From Candidatus Wildermuthbacteria bacterium (GTDB taxonomy: Bacteria; Patescibacteriota; Minisyncoccia; Minisyncoccales; CAVTZN01), in assembly GCA_963739285.1 (NCBI GenBank), contig CAVTZN010000002.1:1134-65133 (forward strand): a stretch of DNA of 64,000 nucleotides, read 5' to 3'. The notes below the pieces were generated by a model, which saw only the letters and a program-made list of their open reading frames with translations, was not told where the DNA came from and searched no databases. Each line of letters opens with the position of its first letter. Position 1 is the stretch's first letter. This document shows positions 3,247-53,780 of the stretch, in pieces. A program made the translations under genes and the position numbers.

Positions 3247-4863
3247 TTACGGCGAAGCAATAACGAAGTAACTAGAGTATTTCTCTTCCCTTATTCGATA
3301 CATGAGAGCCTCGCTTAGATGGTTATAAGTAATTTTTTCCGACCCTTCTAAATCGGCGATGGTTCGGCTGACCTTTAAAACTCGGTGATAGCCCCGGGCA
3401 GAAAGTTGGCCGGAGTTAACACACTTTCTTAGAAGATCTTGAGATTTTAAATCAATTTGGCAATGCCTTTTTATTTGAGGGATGCTCATTTCAGAATTAG
3501 TTAGCTCTCCTTCGTTTTTTTTGCCCTCAGTAGGTCCATCTTTGGCGGAAAACCTTTCTTTCTGAATTTCCCTGGCGCGTCCCACTTTTTCTCTTGCTTT
3601 GGCACTGGAATTTTCCTCGTCAGGAGAAACCAGTTTTTCATATTTTACTGCCGGAACGTCAATAAAAAGATCAATTCTGTCAATTAAAGGACCGGACAAT
3701 TTTCTTCTGTACATGGCAATTTGAGAAGGGAGACAAGTGCATCTTCTTTCAGGGTCGTTCAGATAACCGCAAGGACAGGGGTTGGCTGCCGCCACCAGAG
3801 TGAAACGGGCCGGTAAAATTAAACAGTGCTTGGCTCTCAAAACCGTAATCCTCCCTTCTTCCAAAGGTTGACGGAGAGATTCCAAAACGTCGCGGTGGAA
3901 CTCGGGGAATTCGTCCAAAAATAAAATGCCCCGATGAGACAAGGTGATTTCGCCAGGGCGAGGAGGGTTGCCGCCGCCGATTAAGGCGACTTCTGAAGAA
4001 GTATGATGAGGAGAGCGAAAAGGGCGGACGTCAATTAAAGGGCTGCCCGCCGGCAAAAAACCAGCCGCGCTATAAATTTTTGTTACCTCTAAGGCCTCTT
4101 CAAAAGTCAGTTTGGGCAAAATTGAGGGAATGGCTTGAGCTAATAAGGTTTTCCCCGCTCCCGGCGGGCCTTGCATTAAGAGATTATGGGAACCGGCGGC
4201 AGCAATTTCCAAAGCTCTTTTAGCATATTCTTGTCCTTTTATGTAGGCCAGGTCAATCGGATAAACGGACGTGCTGAAAATTTCTTCTAAACTTATTTTT
4301 GTCGGTGAAACTGTTTTTTTCCCTTCGAGATAATCTATAACCTCTCTGAGGGTTTCCACGCCAATTACTTTTATCCTTTCTTTGCCTGTCGGAGTTCCGC
4401 CGGAGGCGGAAACCAAAGCCGCCTCTTTGGCATTTTCTTTCGGCAGGATAATTTCCAAAAATCCATTTTGTTTGGCGGAGATGGCTGAAGACAATACTCC
4501 CTTGACCGGCCTTAACTTACCGTCCAAAGCCAATTCTCCTAAAAATATTTTATCGGCTGGGTCAAATTTGCTTTGCTTTGAGGCAAGCAGAAAACCCAGA
4601 GCAATTGCCAAATCGTACAGAGAGCCCTCCTTTTTTAAATCGGCCGGAGCCAAATTGACCAAAACCTTGAGATTGGAATGGTGAGGCGGCAAGAACTTGA
4701 TGCTCTTTATGGCCGAATTAACTCTTTCAGTCGATTCCTCGACAGCTTTATCCGGCAGGCCGACGATATCAAAAGAGTGGAGGCCGAAACTGGTATCGAC
4801 CTCCACCTCAACAATTTGACTGTCCAGACCTACAAGGGCCGTTGAGAAAACTTTTACAGGCAT
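3247..4863 (-). CDS. comM: YifB/ComM family Mg-chelatase-like AAA+ ATPase
   Basis: 538-aa ORF with an N-terminal Lon-protease-like domain (ALVGLDSQIVEVEVD), Walker A (GPPGAGKT) and a C-terminal ChlI-like region. Confidence 0.85.
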   Translation of the reverse strand: MPVKVFSTALVGLDSQIVEVEVDTSFGLHSFDIVGLPDKAVEESTERVNSAIKSIKFLPPHHSNLKVLVNLAPADLKKEGSLYDLAIALGFLLASKQSKFDPADKIFLGELALDGKLRPVKGVLSSAISAKQNGFLEIILPKENAKEAALVSASGGTPTGKERIKVIGVETLREVIDYLEGKKTVSPTKISLEEIFSTSVYPIDLAYIKGQEYAKRALEIAAAGSHNLLMQGPPGAGKTLLAQAIPSILPKLTFEEALEVTKIYSAAGFLPAGSPLIDVRPFRSPHHTSSEVALIGGGNPPRPGEITLSHRGILFLDEFPEFHRDVLESLRQPLEEGRITVLRAKHCLILPARFTLVAAANPCPCGYLNDPERRCTCLPSQIAMYRRKLSGPLIDRIDLFIDVPAVKYEKLVSPDEENSSAKAREKVGRAREIQKERFSAKDGPTEGKKNEGELTNSEMSIPQIKRHCQIDLKSQDLLRKCVNSGQLSARGYHRVLKVSRTIADLEGSEKITYNHLSEALMYRIREEKYSSYFVIASP

Positions 4864-6686: not shown

Positions 6687-8796
6687 TTACGTTTGGGTTT
6701 TGGCGTCTTTTAACGATAGGTTTATTCTGCCCTGTTCATCAATAGAGATTACCTTGACCGGCACGATATCTCCAATCTTGACCACATCCTCAACTTTTCC
6801 CACTCGATAGGTGGCTAGTTGGGAAATATGAATTAATCCTTCCTGGCCGGGCAGGATTTCGGCGAAAGCGCCAAAATTTAAAATTCTTTTGATTTTTCCC
6901 TGGAAAACTTCCCCTACTTTTACCTCTCTGACGATGTTTTTAATCCAGTCAATGGCTTTTTTGGCTGCCTCTTCTTTCTCGGAGGTAACATAAATTAAGC
7001 CAGTAGGCTGGATGTCAATTGCCACTCCGGTTTCTCCAATGATTTCGTTGATTATCTTCCCTCCCGGTCCGACTACTTCTCTTATTCTATCCGGATTAAT
7101 TTGAATGGTTAAAATACGAGGAGCAAAAGGCGACAGCTCGGGCCTGGGCTTGTCTAGAACTTTTTCCATGGCGTCCAGGATTTTATTTCTTGCTTTCTTT
7201 CCCTTGTCCAGAGCTTCCTTCAGGATTTCCTCAGTAATTCCTTCAATTTTGACGTCCATCTGCAGGGCGGTTATTCCCTTTCTGGTTCCGGCTACTTTAA
7301 AATCCATATCTCCATGGTGGTCTTCAGGGCCCTGAATATCGGTTAAAATTTTGTAGCTTCCTTTTGAATCTTGCATCAATCCGAGGGAAATTCCGGCTCC
7401 GGGTGACTTAATCGGCACTCCCGCGTCCATGAGGGCCAGAGAAGAAGAAGAAATCGAGGCCATTGAAGTGGAGCCGTTGGAAGAAAGGATTTCTGAAACT
7501 ATTCTGATAGTATAAGGGAAATTTTCAACTGGCGGGATTAAGGGTAAAAGGGCTTTCTCTACCAACATGCCATGGCCGATATCTCTTCTCCCGGGACCTC
7601 TTAACGGCTTAATTTCTCCGGTCGAATAAGGAGGAAAGTTGTAGTGGTGCAGAAATCTTTTTTTGCCGACAATTTCCATGCCTTCCAGAATCTGCTGATC
7701 GCCGGGAGCCCCTAAGGTTAGAATGGAAAGGGCTTTGGTTTGCCCTCGACAAAAAAGCCCTGAGCCATGCGTCCGGGGCAATATCCCCACTTCACAAGAA
7801 AGTTGGCGTATCTCGTCAAGGTCCCGGCCGTCCGCTCTTTTTCCCTTTGAAATTGCATTTTCATGGAGAACTCTTTCGGTTTCTTTTTCAAAAAAGGAGA
7901 GGGCATATTTCACCTTTCCCCCTTCCGGATATTTTTCTTCAATAAAAAAAGACAGGTCTTTTTTAAGATTATCCAATTGCTCGACCCGATAAGCTTTTTC
8001 TTTTTGGTAAAGGGCTTTTTCCAGCCTCTCTTTCAAAAAGATTCCCACCTCTTTTTCTAATTCAGTATCAATTAATTGGGGTTCGAGAGAAGCTTTTTCT
8101 TTGCCAGCCATTTTTAAAATTTCTTTTTGGAAATCAAAAACTTTTTTTAAATGAGGTTTGGCGAAATCCCAGGCATCGGAAACCAATTTTTCATCAACCT
8201 CTTCAAAGCTTCCCTCAATCATGTTGGCGAGGATTTTGTTGTTTTTTTCGACGGCTCCGAAGATCAAATCCACCTGACTTTTCTCCCTTTGTTCATAAGT
8301 CGGGTTGAGAACAAATTCGTTGTCGATTCGGCCAACCCTAACTGCTCCGATTGGTCCTGACCAGGGAATATCAGAAATAGAGAGCGAGATAGAGGCCGCC
8401 AATAAACCAACGACGTCAGAGTCGTTTTCGCCATCCCAGGATAAAACCGTGGCCACTACTTGAACCTCGCGATTCAGGTCTTTCGGAAAGAGCGGCCGAA
8501 TGGTTCTGTCAATCAGACGAGAATTACAAATCGCCTCGTCCGAGGGACGAGACTCTCTTTTGATATATCTGGGGCCGCGGATTTTCCCGGCCGCATAGTA
8601 TTTTTCTTCGTAATCTACCGTCAGGGGGAAGAATCCCATGTCCCTCTTTTTCAAATTTCGACATGACGCAGGTTGCCATAACTAAAGTATCGCCATAACG
8701 CAAAAAAACCTCACCATTGGCTTGCTCGGCTAAATTTCTGACATTGGCTTCCATATTTCTGCCCCCGAGTTCTAATTTTAAAATTTCTCCTTTCAT
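6687..8796 (-). CDS. pnp: polyribonucleotide nucleotidyltransferase (PNPase), frameshift near 8640
   Basis: Contains RNase PH domains, KH and S1 (FFPLTVDYEEKYYAAGKI, GDMDFKVAGT). The N-terminal 90 aa lie in ORF 8524-8796. The rpsO-pnp arrangement is conserved synteny. Confidence 0.9.
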
Positions 8797-9772: not shown

Positions 9773-9806
9773 GGCGGGGCTGCTCTACCAGTTGAGCTAC
9801 AGGGGC
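9773..9806 (-). pseudogene. tRNA 5' fragment (acceptor strand + D arm + start of anticodon arm), with no T arm or 3' acceptor
   Basis: GCCCCTGTAGCTCAACTGGTAGAGCAGCCCCGCC is followed by TTTTTCTC and then directly by tRNA-Lys. Confidence 0.5.
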
Positions 9807-46208: not shown

Positions 46209-46284
46209 AAATGGCCTGCCCTCCCAAGTTTTTGAAAAGCTTCACAAATTTTCATCAATTTGACTTAATTCAAAAATTTAGGAG

Positions 46285-46357
46285 GGCCTGGTAGCCAAGT
46301 AGCTAAGGCAACGGTCTGCAAAACCGTTATACGTGGGTGCAATTCCCACCCAGGCCT
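46285..46357 (+). tRNA. tRNA-Cys(GCA)
   Basis: GGCCTGG/CCAGGCC acceptor, ACGGT-CTGCAAA-ACCGT, T arm GTGGG-TGCAATT-CCCAC (G at position 55). Confidence 0.8.
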
Positions 46358-46366
46358 TAAAAGTCT

Positions 46367-46449
46367 GCCGGGGTGTCGTAATGGTAGCCGAAACAGACTT
46401 AAAATCTGTCGAGCGAAAGCTCATGAGGGTTCGACTCCCTCCCCCGGCA
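46367..46449 (+). tRNA. tRNA-Leu(UAA)
   Basis: GCCGGGG/CCCCGGC acceptor, ACAGA-CTTAAAA-TCTGT, long variable arm. Confidence 0.85.
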
Positions 46450-46453
46450 CCCT

Positions 46454-47209
46454 ATGGCTTTATCGACAAAACCAAGAATTTTCAAGAAAGTTAATTCAGA
46501 TTTCTTTAAAAACTGGACCCCTCAAATGGGTTATATTTTAGGCTATATCGTCGCCGACGGTTGTATTTATAAGAGAAAAAACCGAAAAAATAGTTATACT
46601 CTAAATATAACTTCTAAAGATAAAGATAATTTATTAAAGATGGGAAAAAATTTAAGTCCAGATTGCTGTATAAGTACAAAATACAATTCCCAAAGGATGC
46701 CTTATTCCCAAATTCAGATTTCAAACAGAGAAATTTGTGAAGATTTAATAAGTTTAGGAGTATCTTCTAAGAAAAATTATAATTCAGATTTCTTAAAAAT
46801 TCCCAAGAAGTTTTTTCCCGATTTTACTCGAGGATTTTTTGACGGAGATGGAACAGTTTATATCTACAAAGTTAACGGTACACCACAGATTAAAGCAGGA
46901 TTTGTAAGTCCTAATTTATCTTTCATTACAGAATTTAACAAACAGCTCTGCGAAACCATCGGTATCCAATGTAAAGCTGTTCATAGATTTCATTCAAAAA
47001 ATAAAAAAGTTCCTTTATATAATATTTGTTTCTATATCGATGATTGCGAGAAACTAGCCAGTTTTATGTATAGAAATAATCCAACATTATATCTTTCTCG
47101 CAAGCGAAAAATTTTTGAGAAATGGAAATTAATTAAACGGCGCGATTATATTAAACAGAACTATCCCTCAAAGATCGGTTGGCAATTAAATCAAAAAGTT
47201 CTCGTTTAA
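46454..47209 (+). CDS. double-motif LAGLIDADG homing endonuclease, free-standing
   Basis: ILGYIVADGC and FTRGFFDGDGTV motifs about 100 aa apart. The ATG lies 4 nt after the tRNA-Leu 3' end. Confidence 0.8.
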   Translation: MALSTKPRIFKKVNSDFFKNWTPQMGYILGYIVADGCIYKRKNRKNSYTLNITSKDKDNLLKMGKNLSPDCCISTKYNSQRMPYSQIQISNREICEDLISLGVSSKKNYNSDFLKIPKKFFPDFTRGFFDGDGTVYIYKVNGTPQIKAGFVSPNLSFITEFNKQLCETIGIQCKAVHRFHSKNKKVPLYNICFYIDDCEKLASFMYRNNPTLYLSRKRKIFEKWKLIKRRDYIKQNYPSKIGWQLNQKVLV

Positions 47210-47310
47210 AAAGCCGCCAAAGAACTCCGATAAAAACATCGGCTCGAACCATACTTAGTAAAAGAAAAATTTTCATAAAGGTCGAGGTAAAAACAAAGTC
47301 ATAAAAAATT

Positions 47311-47838
47311 ATGTATTGTGAAAAATGTGGGACAAAATTAGAAGAAGGAACTCAATTTTGTCCTAAATGTGGAATATCAGTAACTCCGGTAAGCGCAGAA
47401 TCTTTTCAGGCTCCCCCTAAACCGAAGAAAAAAAGATCAGTAGTTCCTATTATAATAATAGCTGTTGTTGTGGGTATCATACCTATTGGAATTTTTACCT
47501 CCATTGTTTTAGTTTCTATGAATGGAGCAAGAGAAGCGGCTAGAGATGTAGCTAGGCAAGCAGACATGCGCATGATAAGTACTGCCCAGGAAATTTATTA
47601 TGGCGAAAACGACGCTTATTATACATCTGTTAACTATCCTTCAAGGATTGGATCCTATATGACAAAAACTCCAAATGACCCGAAAGATAATATTTATATT
47701 TGGATTAATAACACTAGTGATCCTAAAAAATTCTGTGTTTATGCTAGCCTTGAAAAAGGGGGATATTATACTGCGTCGCATCGTGGAAGTTTTAAATGTT
47801 CTGATGCTATCCCGACTTTAACTGATTGTTGTTTCTAA
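47311..47838 (+). CDS. zinc-ribbon / TM / type IV pilin-like globular domain protein (no prepilin cleavage motif)
   Basis: CEKCGTKLEEGTQFCPKCG, a TM segment, then IVLVSMNGAREAARDVARQADMRMISTAQEIYYGENDAYY and TPNDP...YASLE, resembling a pilin alpha1-C/beta domain. Confidence 0.55.
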   Translation: MYCEKCGTKLEEGTQFCPKCGISVTPVSAESFQAPPKPKKKRSVVPIIIIAVVVGIIPIGIFTSIVLVSMNGAREAARDVARQADMRMISTAQEIYYGENDAYYTSVNYPSRIGSYMTKTPNDPKDNIYIWINNTSDPKKFCVYASLEKGGYYTASHRGSFKCSDAIPTLTDCCF

Positions 47839-47888
47839 CAGTAGCAAAGAACAATAACTAAAATTAAATTATAAATAAGCAAAATATT

Positions 47889-48410
47889 ATGCATTGCAAG
47901 TATTGCGGAGCACCAATTTTACTCGGTGCGATATTTTGTAGAAATTGTGGTAAACAACTTCAAGAAGAACTTCTTAAATTAAACATAAAGAAGGGCTGGC
48001 TTCGGGTTCTTTTGTTTTCTATTTTTAGTTCCGGTTTTTATCAGATTTATTGGTATTACATTACCTCGAAGTTAGTGAAAGATTTCTTAAAAGAGGATTA
48101 TAGTCCCAGCTTGAGGACGCTGGGTCTATTTGTGCCGATTTTAGGTTGGTTTATGATTTATTATCTCATTGATGATATCTCTCGATTACAAGAAGAAGCC
48201 GATATTGAATCTCCAATTTCTCCTGGCTGGATGTTAGTTTTAGCTATCTTTACTAAGGGTTTTATATACCCAGCCGTAACCCAAAATGAATTTAATCAGT
48301 ATTTAGATGTTAAAACAGGAAACAGGGCTAGCGTTTCAAAGATTTCTATTATTGAGATACTATTTATTGTCTTTTCTATTCTAATATTAATAGGATTTCT
48401 AATGGGGTAA
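47889..48410 (+). CDS. zinc-ribbon + multi-TM (DUF4234-like) membrane protein
   Basis: CKYCGAPILLGAIFCRNCG followed by 4 hydrophobic helices. Confidence 0.5.
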   Translation: MHCKYCGAPILLGAIFCRNCGKQLQEELLKLNIKKGWLRVLLFSIFSSGFYQIYWYYITSKLVKDFLKEDYSPSLRTLGLFVPILGWFMIYYLIDDISRLQEEADIESPISPGWMLVLAIFTKGFIYPAVTQNEFNQYLDVKTGNRASVSKISIIEILFIVFSILILIGFLMG

Positions 48411-48484
48411 AAAGTAAAAGCAGAATCCTTCAATTAAATGCTTTCCATCCTTAGTTTTTAGAATAAATTGCCGCCAAACAAAAA

Positions 48485-48513
48485 CCGCCCCGCTTATAGC
48501 GGGGCGGTTTTTT
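48485..48513. terminator. bidirectional terminator
   Basis: CCGCCCCGC-TTATA-GCGGGGCGG flanked by an A-run and a T-run, between convergent genes. Confidence 0.75.
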
Positions 48514-48518
48514 GAAAG

Positions 48519-49064
48519 TTATTCTTCTTCAACGATTTCCATTATAGTTGATTTTGCCCCAAAGTTCTTGGCTTCCCAATAAGAAGGGAACCAAATATCA
48601 ATCTGATAATTACCTTTTCTTGAATTCATTCTATCTTCGATTACAAAAATTTTGTCGCCATAAATTCCTGGAAGCCGGATTTTTGTTCCGAAAGGCAGAA
48701 GATTATTAGCCACCACTCCATCTCTGACTAAGGTTCCGGCAGCGGTAAGATAAGGATGACTGTCGGTTTGCCAGACCGTAGAAGAGTAAGCGGTGACGAT
48801 TACCTCAATTTGTTCAGCGACGACAAAGTTATCCTGGTGCTCCAGAGGATTAGGGATCGGCAGAAGAGCGTTTTCCTGAATAGCTGAAAACTGGGAGACA
48901 TCCAGGTTCTCATTAGGAAGCGTCTCAAAATCCGCCTCAGCTGCTGGCGTTTTAGTCTCAAAAAAGGGCAAAATTCCAGTTAAGCCAACCAAAACTAAGG
49001 GAATTAGGGCGTATAGCTCCACTCTTTTTCTAAAAAGAGGGAGCTTTTTAGAGTTTGTAGGCAT
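48519..49064 (-). CDS. 3D-domain (MltA/RlpA-like double-psi beta-barrel) secreted protein
   Basis: VTAYSSTVWQTDSHPYLTAAGTLVRDGVVANNLLPFGTKIRLPG ... IEDRMNSRKGNYQIDIW. Confidence 0.7.
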   Translation of the reverse strand: MPTNSKKLPLFRKRVELYALIPLVLVGLTGILPFFETKTPAAEADFETLPNENLDVSQFSAIQENALLPIPNPLEHQDNFVVAEQIEVIVTAYSSTVWQTDSHPYLTAAGTLVRDGVVANNLLPFGTKIRLPGIYGDKIFVIEDRMNSRKGNYQIDIWFPSYWEAKNFGAKSTIMEIVEEE

Positions 49065-49154
49065 CTTAAAACCCCCTTACGGGGGTTCTACCATATTAGC
49101 AAATCCACAGGGGCTGTCAAGCCCTTCTTCTTGCAAGCAAGGTGAAGGGCTAAT

Positions 49155-49229
49155 TGGAGCGGGTGAGCGGAGTTGAACCGCCGTCTTTACCTTGGCAAGG
49201 TAATATAATAGCCGTTATACGACACCCGC
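49155..49229 (-). tRNA. tRNA-Gly(GCC), CCA encoded
   Basis: GCGGGTG/CACCCGC acceptor, TTACC-TTGCCAA-GGTAA. Confidence 0.85.
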
Positions 49230-49319
49230 CTGTGATGTCCTTCGATAAACTCAGGACACCCTTCGACTCGCCCCTCTCAAATTAGGGCTTGCCCTGAGCG
49301 AGCGAAGCGAGTCGAAGGG

Positions 49320-49392
49320 TGCCGCGAGCCAGACTTGCACTGGCGACCCCAGCTTTTTCAGAGCTGTGCTCTACTACCTGAGCTATCGCGGC
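49320..49392 (-). tRNA. tRNA-Phe(GAA)
   Basis: GCCGCGA/TCGCGGC acceptor, CAGCT-CTGAAAA-AGCTG, T arm GCCAG-TGCAAGT-CTGGC (G at position 55). Confidence 0.8.
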
Positions 49393-49445
49393 TCTATTCC
49401 CCGTTATAGCGGGGTCGAGCCCGACCCATATGGGTATAGGGCAAG

Positions 49446-49519
49446 TGGGCGCGTCCTGACTCGAACAGGAGGCCTTCTCGGTGTAAACGAGACGCTCTAA
49501 CCAACTGAGCTACGCGCCC
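49446..49519 (-). tRNA. tRNA-Val(UAC)
   Basis: GGGCGCG/CGCGCCC acceptor, TCTCG-TTTACAC-CGAGA. Confidence 0.85.
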
Positions 49520-49523
49520 CTTT

Positions 49524-49608
49524 TGGTGCGCGGGAGAGGACTCGAACCTCCACGCCTTGCGGCACTAGCACCTCAAGCTAGCCTGGCTACCGATTACAGC
49601 ACCCGCGC
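49524..49608 (-). tRNA. tRNA-Leu(GAG), CCA encoded
   Basis: GCGCGGG/CCCGCGC acceptor, CTAGC-TTGAGGT-GCTAG, long variable arm. Confidence 0.85.
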
Positions 49609-49633: not shown

Positions 49634-50071
49634 TTACTTGTTTTCTTCTGGAGATTCTTTAGTTTCTCGTTCAATAACCTCCCTTTTCTTTAATCTTGTT
49701 TTTCTTCCCTTAGATTTCCTTAAATAATAAAGTTTTGCTCTTCTAACTTTCCCTCTTTTGATGATATCTATTTTTTCGATTGTCGGAGAATGAAGAGGGA
49801 AAATTCTTTCTACGTTAATCCCCGAGATTAACTTTCTTACCGTGATCGTTGAAGAAATTCCCTGGCCATGTTTTCGGGCGATAACCAGCCCTTCAAAAGA
49901 TTGAGTTTTCTGCTTATTTTCCGAAGAATCCGAGCTTTTGGCGCGAGAGGATTTAGAGGGAGAAGACAGGTCTTTAATCTTTTGATAAACCCGAACATTA
50001 TCGCCTGGACGGATGTCCGGCAAGTCTTTTTTTAATTGAGATTGATTAAAAGCGTCAAGTTTGTTTGTCAT
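49634..50071 (-). CDS. rplS: 50S ribosomal protein L19 with an internal Ser/Lys-rich insertion and a basic C-terminal extension
   Basis: IRPGDNVRVYQKI ... FEGLVIARKHGQGISSTITVRK ... VERIFPLHSPTIEKIDII.RGKVRRAKLYYLR. Confidence 0.85.
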   Translation of the reverse strand: MTNKLDAFNQSQLKKDLPDIRPGDNVRVYQKIKDLSSPSKSSRAKSSDSSENKQKTQSFEGLVIARKHGQGISSTITVRKLISGINVERIFPLHSPTIEKIDIIKRGKVRRAKLYYLRKSKGRKTRLKKREVIERETKESPEENK

Positions 50072-50733
50072 ATTTGAGATTTGGTAAGGTTTTCTATAAC
50101 TTTTTTTAAATCTTCTGGCAATTCCGACCTGAATTCTTTTTCTGAGCCGTCCGGCAAGTTTATTTTCAGATAGCTAGCGTGTAAAAATTGCCTTTTTAAT
50201 CCTTGAGGACAGGGTTGATTTTTAAAGCTGTATAATTTATCTCCGGCGATTGGATGGCTGAGCCAGGCAAGTTGGGTTCTGATTTGATGTTTTCGGCCGG
50301 TTTTGGGCTCAACCTCAATCAAATCATAATTTTGAGCCTTTGGCAAGAAATTATCTCCCGAGTATAGTTTTTGAATCTTTGCAATACTTTGTATCTGGTA
50401 ACCGCTTCTCTTTTACCTTGAGCTGCTGGTTCTTGAGGTAAATAAACTTTTTGTTTTCTTTTGTCACCTGGGGAGCGACCAATCAGAGTCTCAATCAATC
50501 CTTCTTCATCTTTGAGATTGCCGACCACTAAGGCAAGATAATTCTTTTTGACCTTCCTCTCCTTGAATTGTTTTTGTAAGAAATCTAAAGCCCTATCGTT
50601 CTTGGCCACCAGAAATATTCCTGAAGTGTCTTTGTCTAAGCGATGAACCCTTTTCTCAAAATCATCGGAATTTACCCCGGCCGGCTTATCAATCACCAGT
50701 AAATCTTCATCTTCGTAAATGATTTTGCTCCAT
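50068..50733 (-). CDS. RluA-family pseudouridine synthase (no S4 domain), frameshift near 50340, no obvious ATG start
   Basis: IIYEDEDLLVIDKPAG, HRLDKDTSG and GRKHQIRTQLA. The stop overlaps the rplS ATG (ATGA). Confidence 0.75.
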
Positions 50734-50734
50734 A

Positions 50735-50806
50735 TGGGCACTACCGGATTTGAACCTGTGACCTCTGCAATGTCAAAGTGCGCGCTAACCACTGCGCCAA
50801 GTGCCC
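50735..50806 (-). tRNA. tRNA-like element with perfect acceptor and D stems and a near-canonical T arm, but a non-pairing anticodon arm (possible Val-GAC or Gln-UUG with errors, or a pseudo-tRNA)
   Basis: GGGCACT TG GCGC AGTGGTTA GCGC G CACTTTGACATTGCAG AGGTC ACAGG TTCAAAT CCGGT AGTGCCC A. Confidence 0.4.
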
Positions 50807-51486
50807 AAATTATTTATTATTATTTTTTTACAAAATAAGTTACTAATATGTATTAATTTTCTTTGAATTGCTACATTCCCGCATTTTATGTGGCACACGC
50901 CCTTGTAATCGGGGTATGTCTTAGATCCTTTTGTTCTCTGGTCGATATTAACATATTTAAAGTTAACTAACGGTAATTTAAGCGTTTTAGCCCAAAAGCG
51001 TTTCATCTCTTCTGGGTCTTGGTCAGCTCTTAAATTTAATTCGCAGCGTATTTTTTCTATATCTAAATTATAAACTCCCCTTACGATTGCTAAGAAGAAT
51101 CTTAGTATTAATGGGTCAGAACTACCAAGGGCAGTTTGATCTGTTGTTTTTGCTCCTTCTCCTAAGTAAAGCATTGCCAAAGCCAATTCAATAATATTCA
51201 GGTCATTAACGTTAATTTTCTCTAATGTTTTTAAAGCCTCCCTTTTCGCTTCTTCCAACCTTTTCTTTTTTTGAGCATTATGCCAAAGGACTGCTTTTTT
51301 ACGTGCTTTTACTAACGCATTTTTCCAATCTTGTAATAATTTTTCTTTCTGTTCTTGTGAAAGCTTAATATTTTTTAGCCAACCGCTAAGAGTAGAACGG
51401 GGAATTTCTAAACGACGTTCAATTTTACCGATAGAAAAACCATTTTTGCGAAGCTTTATAGCATCAGGTCTTTTAATTCGCACCAT
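50785..51486 (-). CDS. putative homing endonuclease-like protein: N-terminal HTH + single LAGLIDADG-like motif
   Basis: GFSIGKIERRLEIPRSTLSGWL (HTH) and LALAMLYLGEGAKT (LAGLIDADG-like). Lies between a tRNA 5' fragment and the tRNA-like element. Confidence 0.45.
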   Translation of the reverse strand: MVRIKRPDAIKLRKNGFSIGKIERRLEIPRSTLSGWLKNIKLSQEQKEKLLQDWKNALVKARKKAVLWHNAQKKKRLEEAKREALKTLEKINVNDLNIIELALAMLYLGEGAKTTDQTALGSSDPLILRFFLAIVRGVYNLDIEKIRCELNLRADQDPEEMKRFWAKTLKLPLVNFKYVNIDQRTKGSKTYPDYKGVCHIKCGNVAIQRKLIHISNLFCKKIIINNLGTWRSG

Positions 51487-51560
51487 CTCGATTTCATGTA
51501 TCCATTATATCATCAGTAGTACTAATTGACAAGGAACTCATCCACAATTTTAGTGTATTT

Positions 51561-51583
51561 TAACCAACTGAGCTATACGCCCC
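51561..51583 (-). pseudogene. 23-nt tRNA 5' fragment (acceptor strand + D stem/loop)
   Basis: GGGGCGTATAGCTCAGTTGGTTA directly abuts the CCA end of the split tRNA-Ile. Confidence 0.5.
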
Positions 51584-51622
51584 TGGTGGGCGTGGAAGGG
51601 ATCGAACCTTCGACCCCAACTT
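51584..51622 (-). tRNA. 3' segment (positions 38-76) of interrupted tRNA-Ile(UAU)
   Basis: A AGTTG GGGTC GAAGG TTCGATC CCTTC CACGCCC A CCA. It pairs perfectly with the 5' segment at 51764-51799. Confidence 0.7.
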
Positions 51623-51665
51623 TATATTTCGCTTTCGGCGAACATATATGCCAGTAAAACATTTT

Positions 51666-51741
51666 TGGTGCGCGCACATGGACTCGAACCAGGGACTTCC
51701 ACTTTATAAGAGTGGCGTTCTAACCACTGAACTATACGCGC
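51666..51741 (-). tRNA. tRNA(UAU), formally Ile, contiguous, nested inside the interrupted tRNA
   Basis: GCGCGTA/TGCGCGC acceptor, CCACT-CTTATAA-AGTGG, T arm CCTGG-TTCGAGT-CCATG (one C:U mismatch), CCA encoded. Confidence 0.75.
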
Positions 51742-51763
51742 TCTCTAAAAATATTTAACTGGA

Positions 51764-51799
51764 TATAAGAGTTGTGCTCTACCACTGAGCTACACGCCC
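51764..51799 (-). tRNA. 5' segment (positions 1-37) of interrupted tRNA-Ile(UAU)
   Basis: GGGCGTG TA GCTC AGTGGTA GAGC A CAACT CTTATA. Confidence 0.7.
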
Positions 51800-51850
51800 C
51801 CTTAATATCTTTTACAGATATGCTTTCAGATATTTCTCGCCTCGCTCGAA

Positions 51851-51884
51851 TTATAAGAGTTGCGTTCTACCAAGAAGTACAGGG
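51851..51884 (-). pseudogene. degenerate third copy of a tRNA(UAU) 5' half
   Basis: CCCTGTACTTCTTGGTAGAACGCAACTCTTATAA, with no matching 3' half; lies just downstream of the ftsH stop. Confidence 0.4.
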
Positions 51885-51893
51885 ATTTTAATA

Positions 51894-53780
51894 CTATTCT
51901 ACTTCAATTCTCCTGATTTTAAAAGATTTCCCTGCTTTAGAGAGAGTTTTACTCTCTCTTTTTCTGATTCCAATCAAACTTTCGAATTCCTCTCTTTCAA
52001 TGGTTTCTTTCTCGATCAGTCTTTGGGCGATTTTTTCTAAAAGTTTTTTTCTGTTTATCAAAACTTTATTAGCGGTTTTTTGGGCGTTGGCTATAAAAGA
52101 AGCAACCTCTTTGTCAATTTTTGCCGCTACCTCTTCAGAGTAATTTCTTTCTTCAGCGAGCTCGTTTCCTAAAAATATTAATTCTTCCCTTTCGCCAAAA
52201 GAAACTGGGCCCAAAGAAGACATGCCATATTCTTTGACTAATTTTCTGGCCAATTCTGAAGCCCTTTTCAGGTCATTGCCGGCGCCGGTAGTAAGTTCCC
52301 CGAATTTTAATCTTTCTGCGCAATACCCCCCTAATAAAGTCGCCATCTCGGTCAAAAATTCTGTTTTTGTTTTAAGCTTTCTTTCTTCGGTCGGCATCTT
52401 GAGGGTGTAGCCGGCCGCCATTCCCCGGGCGATAATAGAGATTTTTCTCACCGGTTCGGCTTCCGGCAAGAAAGAAGAAACCAAGGCATGTCCTACTTCA
52501 TGATAAGCAGTAATTTCTTTTTCTTTTTTTGATAAAATATGCGATTTCCGTTCAGGTCCCAATAAAACTTTCTCAATCGATTCTAAAAGTTCTTCCTGAT
52601 AAACTTGTGATTTTCCCCTTCTGGCTGCGAAAATTGCGGCTTCGTTAACTAAATTAGCCAAATCGGCTCCAGAGAATCCCGGCGTTCTTTCGGCAATCTC
52701 CTTCAAGTTAACGTTTAAGGCCAAGGGCTTTCCTTGGCAGTGGATTTTTAAAATGTCTTCTCGGTCCTTGATGTCGGGCAGGTCTAAAACTATTCTTCTG
52801 TCAAATCGGCCAGGTCTCAGAAGGGCAGGGTCCAAATATTCCGGTCTATTCGTCGCTCCCATAATGATTAGTCCTTCTTCTCTGCCGATGCCATCCATTT
52901 CAGCCAAAATTTGGTTCAGGGTCTGCTCTCTTTCTTCATGCCCACCGGTGACGCCCACCCCTCTTATTTTTCCGATGCTATCAATCTCATCAATAAAGAT
53001 TATCGCCTTACCGGCCTTTCTGGCTTCGTCAAAAAGGTTTCTTACTCGACTGGCTCCCACGCCGACAAATAACTCTATAAATTCAGACCCAGAAATTGAG
53101 AAAAAGGGGACGCCGGCTTCAGAAGATACGGCTTTGGCAAGTAAAGTTTTGCCTGTGCCCGGAGCCCCTATTAATAAAACCCCTCTCGGGATTTTTGCCC
53201 CCATTTGTAAATATTTTTTTGGATTTTGTAAAAAATCTACAATTTCTTTCAATTCCTCTTTCGCTTCTTTTAATCCGGCTACATCATCAAAGGTGACTTT
53301 CTCTTTGGGATGGCCTTCGGCGCCGAATAATCTGGCTCTGGCTTTGGTAAAATCAAAGGCCTGGCCAACACCGCTTCTCGCCTGGCGTAAAATGAACCAG
53401 AAAAAGAAAACAAAAAGCAAAAGGGGCAAAACTGAAAACAAAACCGGCCCTAACCAACTCCAGATATCGTCCGTTTCTTTTGTTTCAATGACAACTTTAG
53501 CCAATTTGGTTTTATCTACTCCATAATTCGCTAACGATTCAGATAAAGCGGCTTCGGTTTCTTTTCGGGAGAGGGCTTTTGAATCATCTTGATAAATTAT
53601 TGAGAGGTCATTACCAGAAACAGTGATTTGTTTGATTTTTTCCTGATTTATTTCTTGAACCAACTGGGACAAAGAGATTTCCTTTTCCTTTTCAGATGTT
53701 CCTTTGAACAAAGTAAAAACCCCCGAAACTATCAGAAAAATCAAAACGATAAAAACCAAATTTTTAAACAAGTTTTTCAT
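51894..53780 (-). CDS. ftsH: ATP-dependent zinc metalloprotease FtsH
   Basis: GAPGTGKTLLAKA, a second region of homology, and HEVGHAL. Confidence 0.95.
   Translation of the reverse strand: MKNLFKNLVFIVLIFLIVSGVFTLFKGTSEKEKEISLSQLVQEINQEKIKQITVSGNDLSIIYQDDSKALSRKETEAALSESLANYGVDKTKLAKVVIETKETDDIWSWLGPVLFSVLPLLLFVFFFWFILRQARSGVGQAFDFTKARARLFGAEGHPKEKVTFDDVAGLKEAKEELKEIVDFLQNPKKYLQMGAKIPRGVLLIGAPGTGKTLLAKAVSSEAGVPFFSISGSEFIELFVGVGASRVRNLFDEARKAGKAIIFIDEIDSIGKIRGVGVTGGHEEREQTLNQILAEMDGIGREEGLIIMGATNRPEYLDPALLRPGRFDRRIVLDLPDIKDREDILKIHCQGKPLALNVNLKEIAERTPGFSGADLANLVNEAAIFAARRGKSQVYQEELLESIEKVLLGPERKSHILSKKEKEITAYHEVGHALVSSFLPEAEPVRKISIIARGMAAGYTLKMPTEERKLKTKTEFLTEMATLLGGYCAERLKFGELTTGAGNDLKRASELARKLVKEYGMSSLGPVSFGEREELIFLGNELAEERNYSEEVAAKIDKEVASFIANAQKTANKVLINRKKLLEKIAQRLIEKETIEREEFESLIGIRKRESKTLSKAGKSFKIRRIEVE

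Follow-up and report, generated by a model that had tools for sequence, protein, structure and literature searches.

The introns known in bacterial transfer RNA (tRNA) genes are group I introns (Williams 2020, preprint, doi 10.1101/2020.01.27.920355), and the known sources of tRNA fragments are the attachment (att) sites of integrases and the spacers of clustered regularly interspaced short palindromic repeats (CRISPR) (PMC9897764). In addition, a link between the insertion of a mobile element and the disruption of tRNA genes has been proposed for Caldiarchaeum (PMC3293823). In this study we describe a locus in a 64,000-nucleotide (nt) stretch (hereafter the window) of contig CAVTZN010000002.1 from a Candidatus Wildermuthbacteria bacterium, in which a tRNA-Ile(UAU) gene is split in its anticodon loop by an insert that carries another, complete tRNA-Ile(UAU) gene. 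With a probability of roughly 0.7, this nest reflects a site-specific cassette without an open reading frame (ORF), one of a family that repeatedly split and replaced tRNA-Ile(UAU) genes in Patescibacteria.

A tRNA-Ile(UAU) gene split by a second one

Coordinates are positions in the window, and the nest is read on the minus strand. In the order of reading, its parts are as follows:

51764..51799, minus strand: 5' half of the outer tRNA-Ile(UAU), 36 nt, with the acceptor 5' strand, the D arm, the 5' strand of the anticodon stem and the loop CTTATA; it reads GGGCGTG TA GCTC AGTGGTA GAGC A CAACT CTTATA
51742..51763, minus strand: 5' arm (leader) of the cassette, TCCAGTTAAATATTTTTAGAGA, which pairs with the 3' arm in the fold
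51666..51741, minus strand: inner complete tRNA-Ile(UAU), 76 nt, with encoded CCA; ARAGORN Ile(tat), Rfam tRNA 66.1 bits
51651..51665, minus strand: 3' arm of the cassette, AAAATGTTTTACTGG, complementary to the 5' arm
51643..51650, minus strand: linker CATATATG, whose AUAUA pairs with the UAUAU of the 5' junction in the minimum-free-energy fold
51628..51642, minus strand: small hairpin TTCGC-CGAAA-GCGAA, adjoining the 3' junction
51623..51627, minus strand: final 5 nt of the insert, ATATA, which together with the 5' junction form the repeated TATA and the palindromic extension UUAUAU/AUAUAA
51584..51622, minus strand: 3' half of the outer tRNA-Ile(UAU), 39 nt, with the loop A, the 3' strand of the anticodon stem, the variable loop, the T arm, the acceptor 3' strand and ACCA; it reads A AGTTG GGGTC GAAGG TTCGATC CCTTC CACGCCC A CCA

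The insert as a whole (51763-51623, 141 nt) comprises 22 nt, the 76-nt tRNA gene and 43 nt, and it contains no protein gene. A split tRNA-Ile(UAU) holding an inner tRNA had been reported in a preliminary description of this DNA, and we could confirm it: the outer halves joined in silico were called by ARAGORN as a 75-nt tRNA-Ile(tat), with all stems fully paired and the loop CTTATAA. When ARAGORN was run in its intron mode, the outer gene was not called and the inner gene alone was reported, which implies that standard annotation overlooks the outer gene. In the inner tRNA, the acceptor stem contains a single U-G pair and the T stem a single C-U mismatch. The pairing of the insert ends with each other, proposed in the same description, was also found, and it forms the dominant helix of the minimum-free-energy fold (UAUAUCCAGU.AAAUAUUUUU with AAAAAUGUUU.ACUGG.AUAUA; z = -5.4). 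The motif TATA is present at both junctions, where CTCTTATA is followed by TCC... and ...GAAATATA by AAG. The small hairpin occurs just twice in the window, and the reading of it as a dispersed repeat was thus rejected.

For comparison we fetched 354 loci (L001 to L354), and gene order was compared in 80 relatives. The closest matches of FtsH, which is encoded just upstream of the nest, were proteins from metagenome-assembled genomes (MAGs) of Patescibacteria/Parcubacteria, and among these relatives the gene order ftsH - tRNA-Ile(tat) - tRNA-Val(gac) - (rluD, L19) - Leu(gag) Val(tac) Phe Gly is widespread, its first part, ftsH - tRNA-Ile(tat) - tRNA-Val(gac), being kept in most of the 80. Searches for exact copies of the FtsH, L19 and ORF233 (described below) proteins of the window returned nothing. 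In L201, the closest relative found (FtsH 93% identical to that of the window), an intact tRNA-Ile(tat) gene lies at the syntenic site directly downstream of ftsH and matches the joined halves of the window at 75 of 75 positions, the 5' half (51764..51799) being identical to its positions 1-36. Moreover, L001 (FtsH 74% identical) has an intact tRNA-Ile(tat) gene that agrees with the joined outer gene at 70/72 positions, and the two differences are a compensatory pair in the anticodon stem. These intact syntenic copies imply that the outer gene is the resident, vertically inherited one and that L201 and L001 represent empty sites, such as the preliminary description had suggested looking for at the orthologous locus. 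The inner tRNA represents another allele, which agrees with the outer one at 53/72 positions, and its nearest relative among resident-type genes is that of L004 (87%).

The nest of the window was also present in L324 and L334, contigs of two other metagenome samples that differ from each other by 1 base over 3.5 kilobases (kb). The junctions are the same as in the window, CTTATA being followed by T.CAG... and ...GCGAAATAT by AAAGTTG, and this excludes a misassembly. In L324 the 5' half is identical to that of the window, the 5' arm is homologous with 5 differences in 23 columns, and the hairpin has an unchanged stem and a replaced loop (TAGGA; 4 of 5 loop bases differ from the window). The inner tRNA of L324/L334 is fully paired and shares 72 of 74 positions with the inner tRNA of the window.

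Nests in other Patescibacteria

Half-tRNAs were sought by running a tRNA-Ile(tat) profile over the fetched loci. The following nests and remnants were found:

L009: two 5' halves, a complete tRNA and two 3' halves, that is, three concentric layers
L129: three layers; a deletion has fused the two 3' halves, and a loop is mutated
L018: an outer layer and two identical inner layers (2/3), partly collapsed
L008: two layers, with a 78-nt palindrome in the D loop of the outer gene
L049 (a single-cell genome): inner gene between long inverted repeats, within a badly decayed outer gene
L048, L201 and window 51872-51851: a lone 5' half left from an earlier layer

This recurrence and the multi-layering across the clade go beyond what the preliminary description contained, as do two relics in the window at 51872-51851 and 51583-51541. 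Within the anticodon loop, the 5' breakpoint is at CTTAT (+/- 1 nt) and the 3' breakpoint at (AT)AA in every case; at least 12 junctions in at least 7 genomes are within 1-2 nt of one loop position, and the orientation of the layers is identical in every nest. ARAGORN called the joined outer layers of L009 (both), L008, L018 and L324 as tRNA-Ile(tat), and the outer cloverleaf is perfect in the window, in layer 2 of L009 and in layer 1 of L018.

Among 182 tRNAs, no nest of a 5' half, a complete tRNA and a 3' half was observed for another isotype; the other orphan pieces among them were lone 5' relics beside ORF233 cassettes (described below) and an intron-split tRNA-Phe. In L036 (10033-10541) and L037 (11110-11395) position 37 of a tRNA-Phe(GAA) gene is followed by an insert of about 250-450 nt and, downstream of it, the matching 3' half, and this candidate insert is probably a group I intron. 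A metagenome scan with the pattern TAGCTCA..AGAGC......CTTATB returned mostly ordinary tRNAs with the loop CUUAUGA (G37), the sole real nest being that of L129, and a scan of viral contigs for the GGCGGAAA..TTTCATAA hairpin gave chance matches only, none of them followed by a T arm. The metagenome contigs L082-L200 contain more than 100 tRNAs, mostly on marine or phage-like contigs, whose loop CUUAUGA combines the UAU anticodon with G37 instead of A37. Short inserts after G37 of this loop were seen in L088, L186, L194 and L197.

The inserts share one order of parts, namely a 5' arm, the tRNA, a short trailer, a reverse-complementary 3' arm and, in all except L049, a small hairpin at the 3' junction. 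The arms are 15-36 base pairs (bp) long and their sequences are unrelated between cassettes, yet the pairing is kept within each. Hairpins occur at the same 3'-junction position in L008, L009, L129 and L018. The cassettes of L008, L009 (twice) and L129 form a family that starts with GAC and ends with GGCGGAAA-stem-loop-stem-TTTCAT, and its 3' hairpin has undergone a compensatory change (GAAATTGT/ACAATTTC versus GAAACCG/CGGTTTC, i.e., TTGT/ACAA versus CCG/CGG). The family of the window and L324 starts with AT(C/T)CAG and ends with TTCGC-loop-GCGAA-ATAT. Altogether, three sequence-unrelated cassette families follow one arm-tRNA-arm-hairpin plan.

The ends of the inserts are inverted repeats (GA...TC, AT...AT and ATC...GAT), which extend the palindromic TTAT/ATAA of the loop to a 6-bp helix, UUAUGA/UCAUAA or UUAUAU/AUAUAA, with the two junctions opposite each other within a continuous helix. 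The insertion is always 3' of (C)TTAT and the hairpin is at the right end; a separate left-end hairpin was not seen in these inserts. The inverted arms reach both insert ends in L049 only, the 3' arm being otherwise subterminal. The repeat that flanks the insert is TATA in the window, AT in L008, L009, L129 and L049, and absent in L018. The TATA that the preliminary description had noted at both junctions is thus present in the window, but its interpretation as a 4-nt target duplication was not borne out, since the other nests repeat only AT or nothing.

The innermost gene is complete in every nest and fully paired in L324, whereas the outer layers carry various defects. In L049 the D and T arms of the outer gene are broken, layer 1 of L009 has a C-A mismatch in the acceptor stem, and the outer gene of L324/L334 has a G2-G71 mismatch and a 3' rearrangement with extra degenerate copies of the 3' half. 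The D-loop palindrome in the outer gene of L008 (7999-8077) is near-perfect, flanked by repeated TAG, and resembles a miniature inverted-repeat transposable element (MITE). AUA codons are in normal use in the window (76/5886 codons in 12 long ORFs), and an insertion that killed the sole AUA decoder would consequently need a substitute. Given that older outer layers decay, we conclude from the sequences that the inner gene is presumably the working AUA decoder, the outer halves being relics of a recent inactivation. The empty sites, the different inner allele and the decay of older outer layers support the first of the two alternatives raised in the preliminary description, namely that a tRNA-carrying insertion killed the gene and replaced it.

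Explanations of the nest

At the DNA level we demonstrated the arrangement, its empty ancestral site, its recurrence, including insertion into the cargo tRNA of an earlier cassette, the fixed site and orientation, the shared architecture and the decay of older outer layers, and also that halves were later lost and fused by recombination. In the reading that we prefer, the resident tRNA-Ile(UAU) gene downstream of ftsH would have been split after U36/A37 by a 141-bp cassette in which two complementary arms and a small 3' hairpin accompany a tRNA-Ile(UAU) allele of another type. The insertion point lies within the palindromic TTATAA of the loop, always with one orientation, and the targets include the tRNA cargo of an earlier cassette, giving rise to Russian-doll nests. 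The nest would be transcribed from upstream of the outer gene, and the arm helix could both prevent the inner cloverleaf from pairing wrongly with the outer halves, to which it is homologous, and present it to RNase P and the 3'-end nucleases. As to the spread of the cassette, we favour a homing-like process, in which a nuclease would cut intact tRNA-Ile(UAU) DNA at TTATAA and the break would be repaired by copying the nested allele; such a process would also explain self-nesting with identical layers. Alternatively, the cassette could be a non-autonomous hairpin/inverted-repeat element that a transposase moves in trans. Survival would be limited to insertions that supply a replacement, AUA codons being in regular use. 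Selection for a working inner gene would tolerate any outer breakpoint, and the fixed breakpoint thus points to the mechanism as its source.

Several described modes of insertion were considered for the cassette. Integrase-type integration does not agree with a layout that is concentric and not tandem, with an insert of 141 bp, or with the lack of a recombinase in or next to the insert, and the integration of a small circle by an anticodon-loop integrase was rejected because by its geometry it would give two tandem chimeric tRNAs instead of nested ones. The L009 junctions do not fit a TA or TWA target duplication of the IS630/mariner or IS5/Harbinger types. Dispersed copies such as those of a MITE were not seen within the window, where no further copy of the arms or the insert occurs. 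TnpA was not found in the ORFs scanned.

The following observations weigh against the preferred reading. No mobility enzyme was identified, and no transposase or recombinase was present in the ORFs scanned near the tRNA genes; neither the cassette nor its arms recur within the 64-kb window, and none of the 354 fetched loci is a donor locus with the same arms. A classical transposon is a poor fit, the flanking repeat being generally AT or nothing and the arms subterminal on the 3' side. In addition, the inner tRNA of the window is imperfect on account of the C-U mismatch in its T stem. Finally, the outer halves have changed very little. At four-fold degenerate sites the window is about 80% identical to L324/L334 (72-78% for either versus L201), and at this silent-site rate about 15 differences would be expected between the outer halves of the window and L324/L334, where we found 1/75. 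Outside the tRNA, about 12 events in about 68 columns separate the cassettes of the window and L324, in line with the silent-site rate. The data thus reject a model in which the cassette entered the common ancestor once and the halves then decayed neutrally (binomial P ~1e-6), and this rejection implies either the lateral or independent arrival of related cassettes or a constraint on the halves.

We favour lateral spread, in which related cassettes would have reached each lineage recently, so that the halves would be as young as the last transfer while the interior would date the cassette family. Lateral spread fits the decay of older nests and the fast turnover of tRNA alleles in the clade. 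In the tRNA cluster of the window (46284-49608), Val(UAC) and Leu(UAA) are identical to those of L334 at 49/74 and 60/84 positions, respectively, Phe and Gly are identical, and the tRNA genes at syntenic positions of the window, L334 and L201 are not orthologous. Moreover, the loci L335-L344 (~3400-3570) encode an identical FtsH protein and carry two different tRNA-Ile(UAU) alleles, the second of which consists of the first 9 nt (GCGCGTGTA) of the first allele, then 15 nt, and then a different complete tRNA. This amounts to a strain-level replacement polymorphism. Constraint, under which the outer halves would be subject to selection and still doing something, is the less favoured but still plausible reading.

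The occurrence of such replacements is also compatible with an explanation that involves no dedicated mobile element. In this case the nests would arise incidentally as diverged tRNA-Ile alleles acquired from relatives frequently recombine, with short conserved tRNA blocks as anchors, and the arms and the hairpin would be kept as an aid to the processing of the inner tRNA. Alleles at syntenic sites are indeed swapped among close relatives, and in the population with identical FtsH one tRNA-Ile allele replaces another from position 10 on, leaving a 9-nt relic. Furthermore, the near-identical layers in L008, L018 (2/3), L129 (2/3) and L049 are what gene conversion or repeat recombination predicts, and the 3' halves of L129 were fused by a deletion. 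However, recombination does not readily account for at least 12 junctions in at least 7 genomes that lie within 1-2 nt of the same loop position in one orientation, since a working inner gene would allow any outer breakpoint and the fixed site points to a mechanism. The arm-tRNA-arm-hairpin plan and the inverted terminal dinucleotides shared by three unrelated families also speak against it, and we consider this explanation unlikely.

It is distinctly improbable, in our estimation, that the insert behaves like an intron. Both tRNAs would then be made from one precursor, the inner one being freed by RNase P and a 3' nuclease, and the outer halves, held by the arm helix and their own stems, would either be ligated after trimming or serve as a split tRNA, which would keep the outer gene functional. 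The conservation of the outer halves far beyond that of silent sites (1/75 against about 15 expected) would be in accordance with this, as would the perfect outer cloverleaf in three of the nests (window, L009 layer 2 and L018 layer 1) and the conserved junction structure with its 6-bp helix and the hairpin at the 3' junction. The pairing of the arms also resembles the complementary leaders of archaeal split tRNAs. However, the older outer layers of L008, L049, L129 and L009 (layer 1) have decayed, lone halves are left in L048, L201 and the window (51872-51851), and the outer gene of L324/L334 contains the G2-G71 mismatch. To our knowledge, there is no bacterial pathway that trims and joins tRNA-half ends of this kind. 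The window covers 64 kb of a 92.6-kb contig, and among the ORFs scanned neither a splicing endonuclease nor an RNA ligase was seen.

The lack of RNA signatures expected of splicing also argues against an intron, since searches at E <= 10 detected neither a group I core nor a ribozyme or any other RNA family. Rfam gave no group I core (P3-P9) at this threshold in window 50500-52100 or in L009 7850-8330. U36 precedes the insert, and under every junction assignment the insert ends with A or T, never with G. A group I intron was rejected on account of the missing core, the small size of the insert and its last base. A bulge-helix-bulge intron was rejected because both junctions lie opposite each other inside the continuous 6-bp helix and not in bulges. 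The layout of a trans-assembled split tRNA does not match either, as the halves are 141 nt apart on one strand and the complementary arms flank an intact tRNA. A hammerhead ribozyme mapped by hand (CUUAUGA ... GAAA ... hairpin) has U in place of the essential G5, its cleavage site is off the junction, the motif is absent from the window family and it has no Rfam match. For the second alternative of the preliminary description, in which RNase P/Z would release halves that reassemble in trans, we found no positive evidence, there being no bulge-helix-bulge, ribozyme or group I core, and older outer genes were not maintained; it keeps a small probability because the outer halves are unusually conserved between the window and L324/L334. 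Should the cassette, against our expectation, be a bacterial tRNA intron whose body is a tRNA, with one transcript giving two tRNA-Ile(UAU), it would be the bacterial counterpart of the archaeal split and intron-containing tRNAs and would explain the conservation of the outer halves beyond the silent-site rate. If the outer genes do mature, this would be the first case in Bacteria of a split tRNA processed by proteins or by the host.

An assembly artefact, in which reads of two strains that differ in their tRNA-Ile allele would have been joined into a chimera, has a negligible chance of being the explanation: although the window comes from a metagenome-type contig with nearby oddities (the rluD frame breaks and damaged tRNA-Val described below), the nest recurs in L324 and L334 from two other samples with the same junctions and diverged arms, and similar nests are found in MAGs of several studies and in one single-cell genome (L049).

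Neighbouring features and known systems

The nest is surrounded by further remnants of tRNA genes and by a second kind of cassette:

51851..51872, minus strand: older relic (fragA), a piece of an earlier tRNA-Ile(UAU) layer from the D arm to the anticodon loop, ending with CTTATAA
51800..51850, minus strand: spacer between this relic and the outer gene
51541..51583, minus strand: fragD, the remnant, now decayed, of the 5' part of the resident tRNA-Val(GAC), which the ORF233 cassette truncated; the gene is intact in L201 (8031-8105)
50785..51532, minus strand: ORF233 cassette, with a sigma-70-like promoter sequence TTGTCA-17-TATAAT (51532-51504) and ORF233 (51486-50785)
50735..50806, minus strand: tRNA-Val(GAC) of the ORF233 cassette; Rfam 44.7 bits, not called by ARAGORN

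A fuller homolog of fragA in L201 (~7901-7935) ends with CTCTTATA followed by TCTGTAAAAG. Within the spacer, 51818-51800 (TCTGTAAAAGATATTAAGG) is common to the window and L201 and resembles the leader of the earlier layer. The 32-nt segment 51850-51819 (minus strand) is specific to the window, lies exactly at the junction of the older relic and resembles the 3' hairpin end of a cassette (TTCG..GCGAGAAATAT); judged by this likeness it may be the footprint of another cassette.

The ORF233 cassette, which lies directly downstream of the nest and truncated the resident tRNA-Val, looks like a second kind of tRNA-replacing cassette. Its tRNA-Val(GAC) is damaged in the window (anticodon stem CACT versus TGCAG, and a mismatch in the T stem) and intact in L324, L331 and L332. 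ORF233 has more than 1,350 homologs, all of them from Patescibacteria and all unnamed, and it has an N-terminal helix-turn-helix. Genes of this type (L001 8206-8996, L034, L017, L325, L345-L354) lie just upstream of a tRNA, with the stop codon in its D loop, and are often preceded by the 5' relic of an older tRNA. The AlphaFold model of ORF233 is confident (predicted local distance difference test, pLDDT, 92), and it gave no significant fold match in PDB. A guess from the motif LYLGEG that ORF233 is a LAGLIDADG homing endonuclease was rejected, there being no sequence match in Pfam, NCBIfam or PDB beyond a weak helix-turn-helix.

The rluD gene downstream (50068-50792, minus strand) has a 4-nt insertion, GAGC, right after its ATG in comparison with L201, and a second change of frame, which gives the overlapping ORFs 50792-50319 and 50346-50068. 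The gene is intact in L201, L202 and L324, and that of the window is either a pseudogene or an assembly error. Elsewhere in the window, a 26-nt 5' tRNA fragment (GCCCCTGTAGCTCAACTGGTAGAGCAGC) lies at 9780-9805 (minus strand), just upstream of a complete tRNA-Lys(CUU), and a LAGLIDADG-family ORF (46454-47209, plus strand; Pfam LAGLIDADG_3, LAGLIDADG_1) begins 2 nt after tRNA-Leu(UAA) and is absent from that place in L201. The FtsH homologs P0032, P0036, P0049, P0079, P0084 and P0105 are 1064-1093 aa long with Pfam intein-splicing or LAGLIDADG_3 matches and are intein-containing FtsH proteins of the same clade.

The cassette would represent a third way for mobile DNA to enter an essential tRNA gene, since it brings a complete spare copy, whereas integrases carry a fragment and group I introns rely on splicing. 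The target site is present again in the spare copy, which allows the process to repeat, and the nests would constitute a fossil record of successive replacements. This suggests that tRNA genes in the reduced genomes of the candidate phyla radiation can be exchanged horizontally, faster than the neighbouring protein genes diverge. Moreover, standard tRNA finders miss the halves, which affects the counts of tRNA genes and pseudogenes in these genomes.

Full-text literature searches yielded no account of bacterial tRNA genes in which one is nested within the anticodon loop of another. The free-standing homing-endonuclease cassette SegB of phage T4 spreads, through the repair of breaks, together with the tRNA genes next to it. 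The ORF233 + tRNA-Val cassette beside the nest has the look of this type, although a nuclease role of ORF233 is unsupported; the tRNA-Ile cassette has no ORF. Like the nest, the group I introns of tRNA-Leu(UAA), tRNA-Ile(CAU) and tRNA-Arg lie in the anticodon loop after a 5' exon that ends in U, and decoding is kept. These introns, however, self-splice, whereas the insert of the nest has 141 nt without a catalytic core and the rescue comes from a second gene within it. Integrase islands and phages (PMC9897764) also target tRNA genes, sometimes in the anticodon loop, restore a working gene and leave fragments, but they measure kilobases and encode an integrase, while in the nest a complete tRNA lies between the old halves, with no recombinase in or beside the cassette.

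Archaeal tRNAs that contain introns or are split (Nanoarchaeum, Caldiarchaeum) are comparable in having a break in or near the anticodon loop and flanking complementary sequences. In contrast, the nest is found in a bacterium and lacks a bulge-helix-bulge, its halves are in cis at a distance of 141 nt, the inserted sequence is itself a tRNA with the identity of the split one, and older outer genes decay. MITEs and derivatives of IS200/IS605 elements resemble the cassette in being short and ORF-less, with inverted arms, a hairpin near one end and, as here 3' of TTAT, a fixed insertion point and orientation; the cassette, however, is present in a single copy per genome as far as visible, carries an essential gene as cargo, and has variable arms of which the 3' one is subterminal. 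The nest thus belongs to a known kind of event, mobile DNA inserting into a tRNA gene while function is preserved, and what is new and distinctive is the complete spare tRNA gene as cargo and the concentric nests as the outcome.

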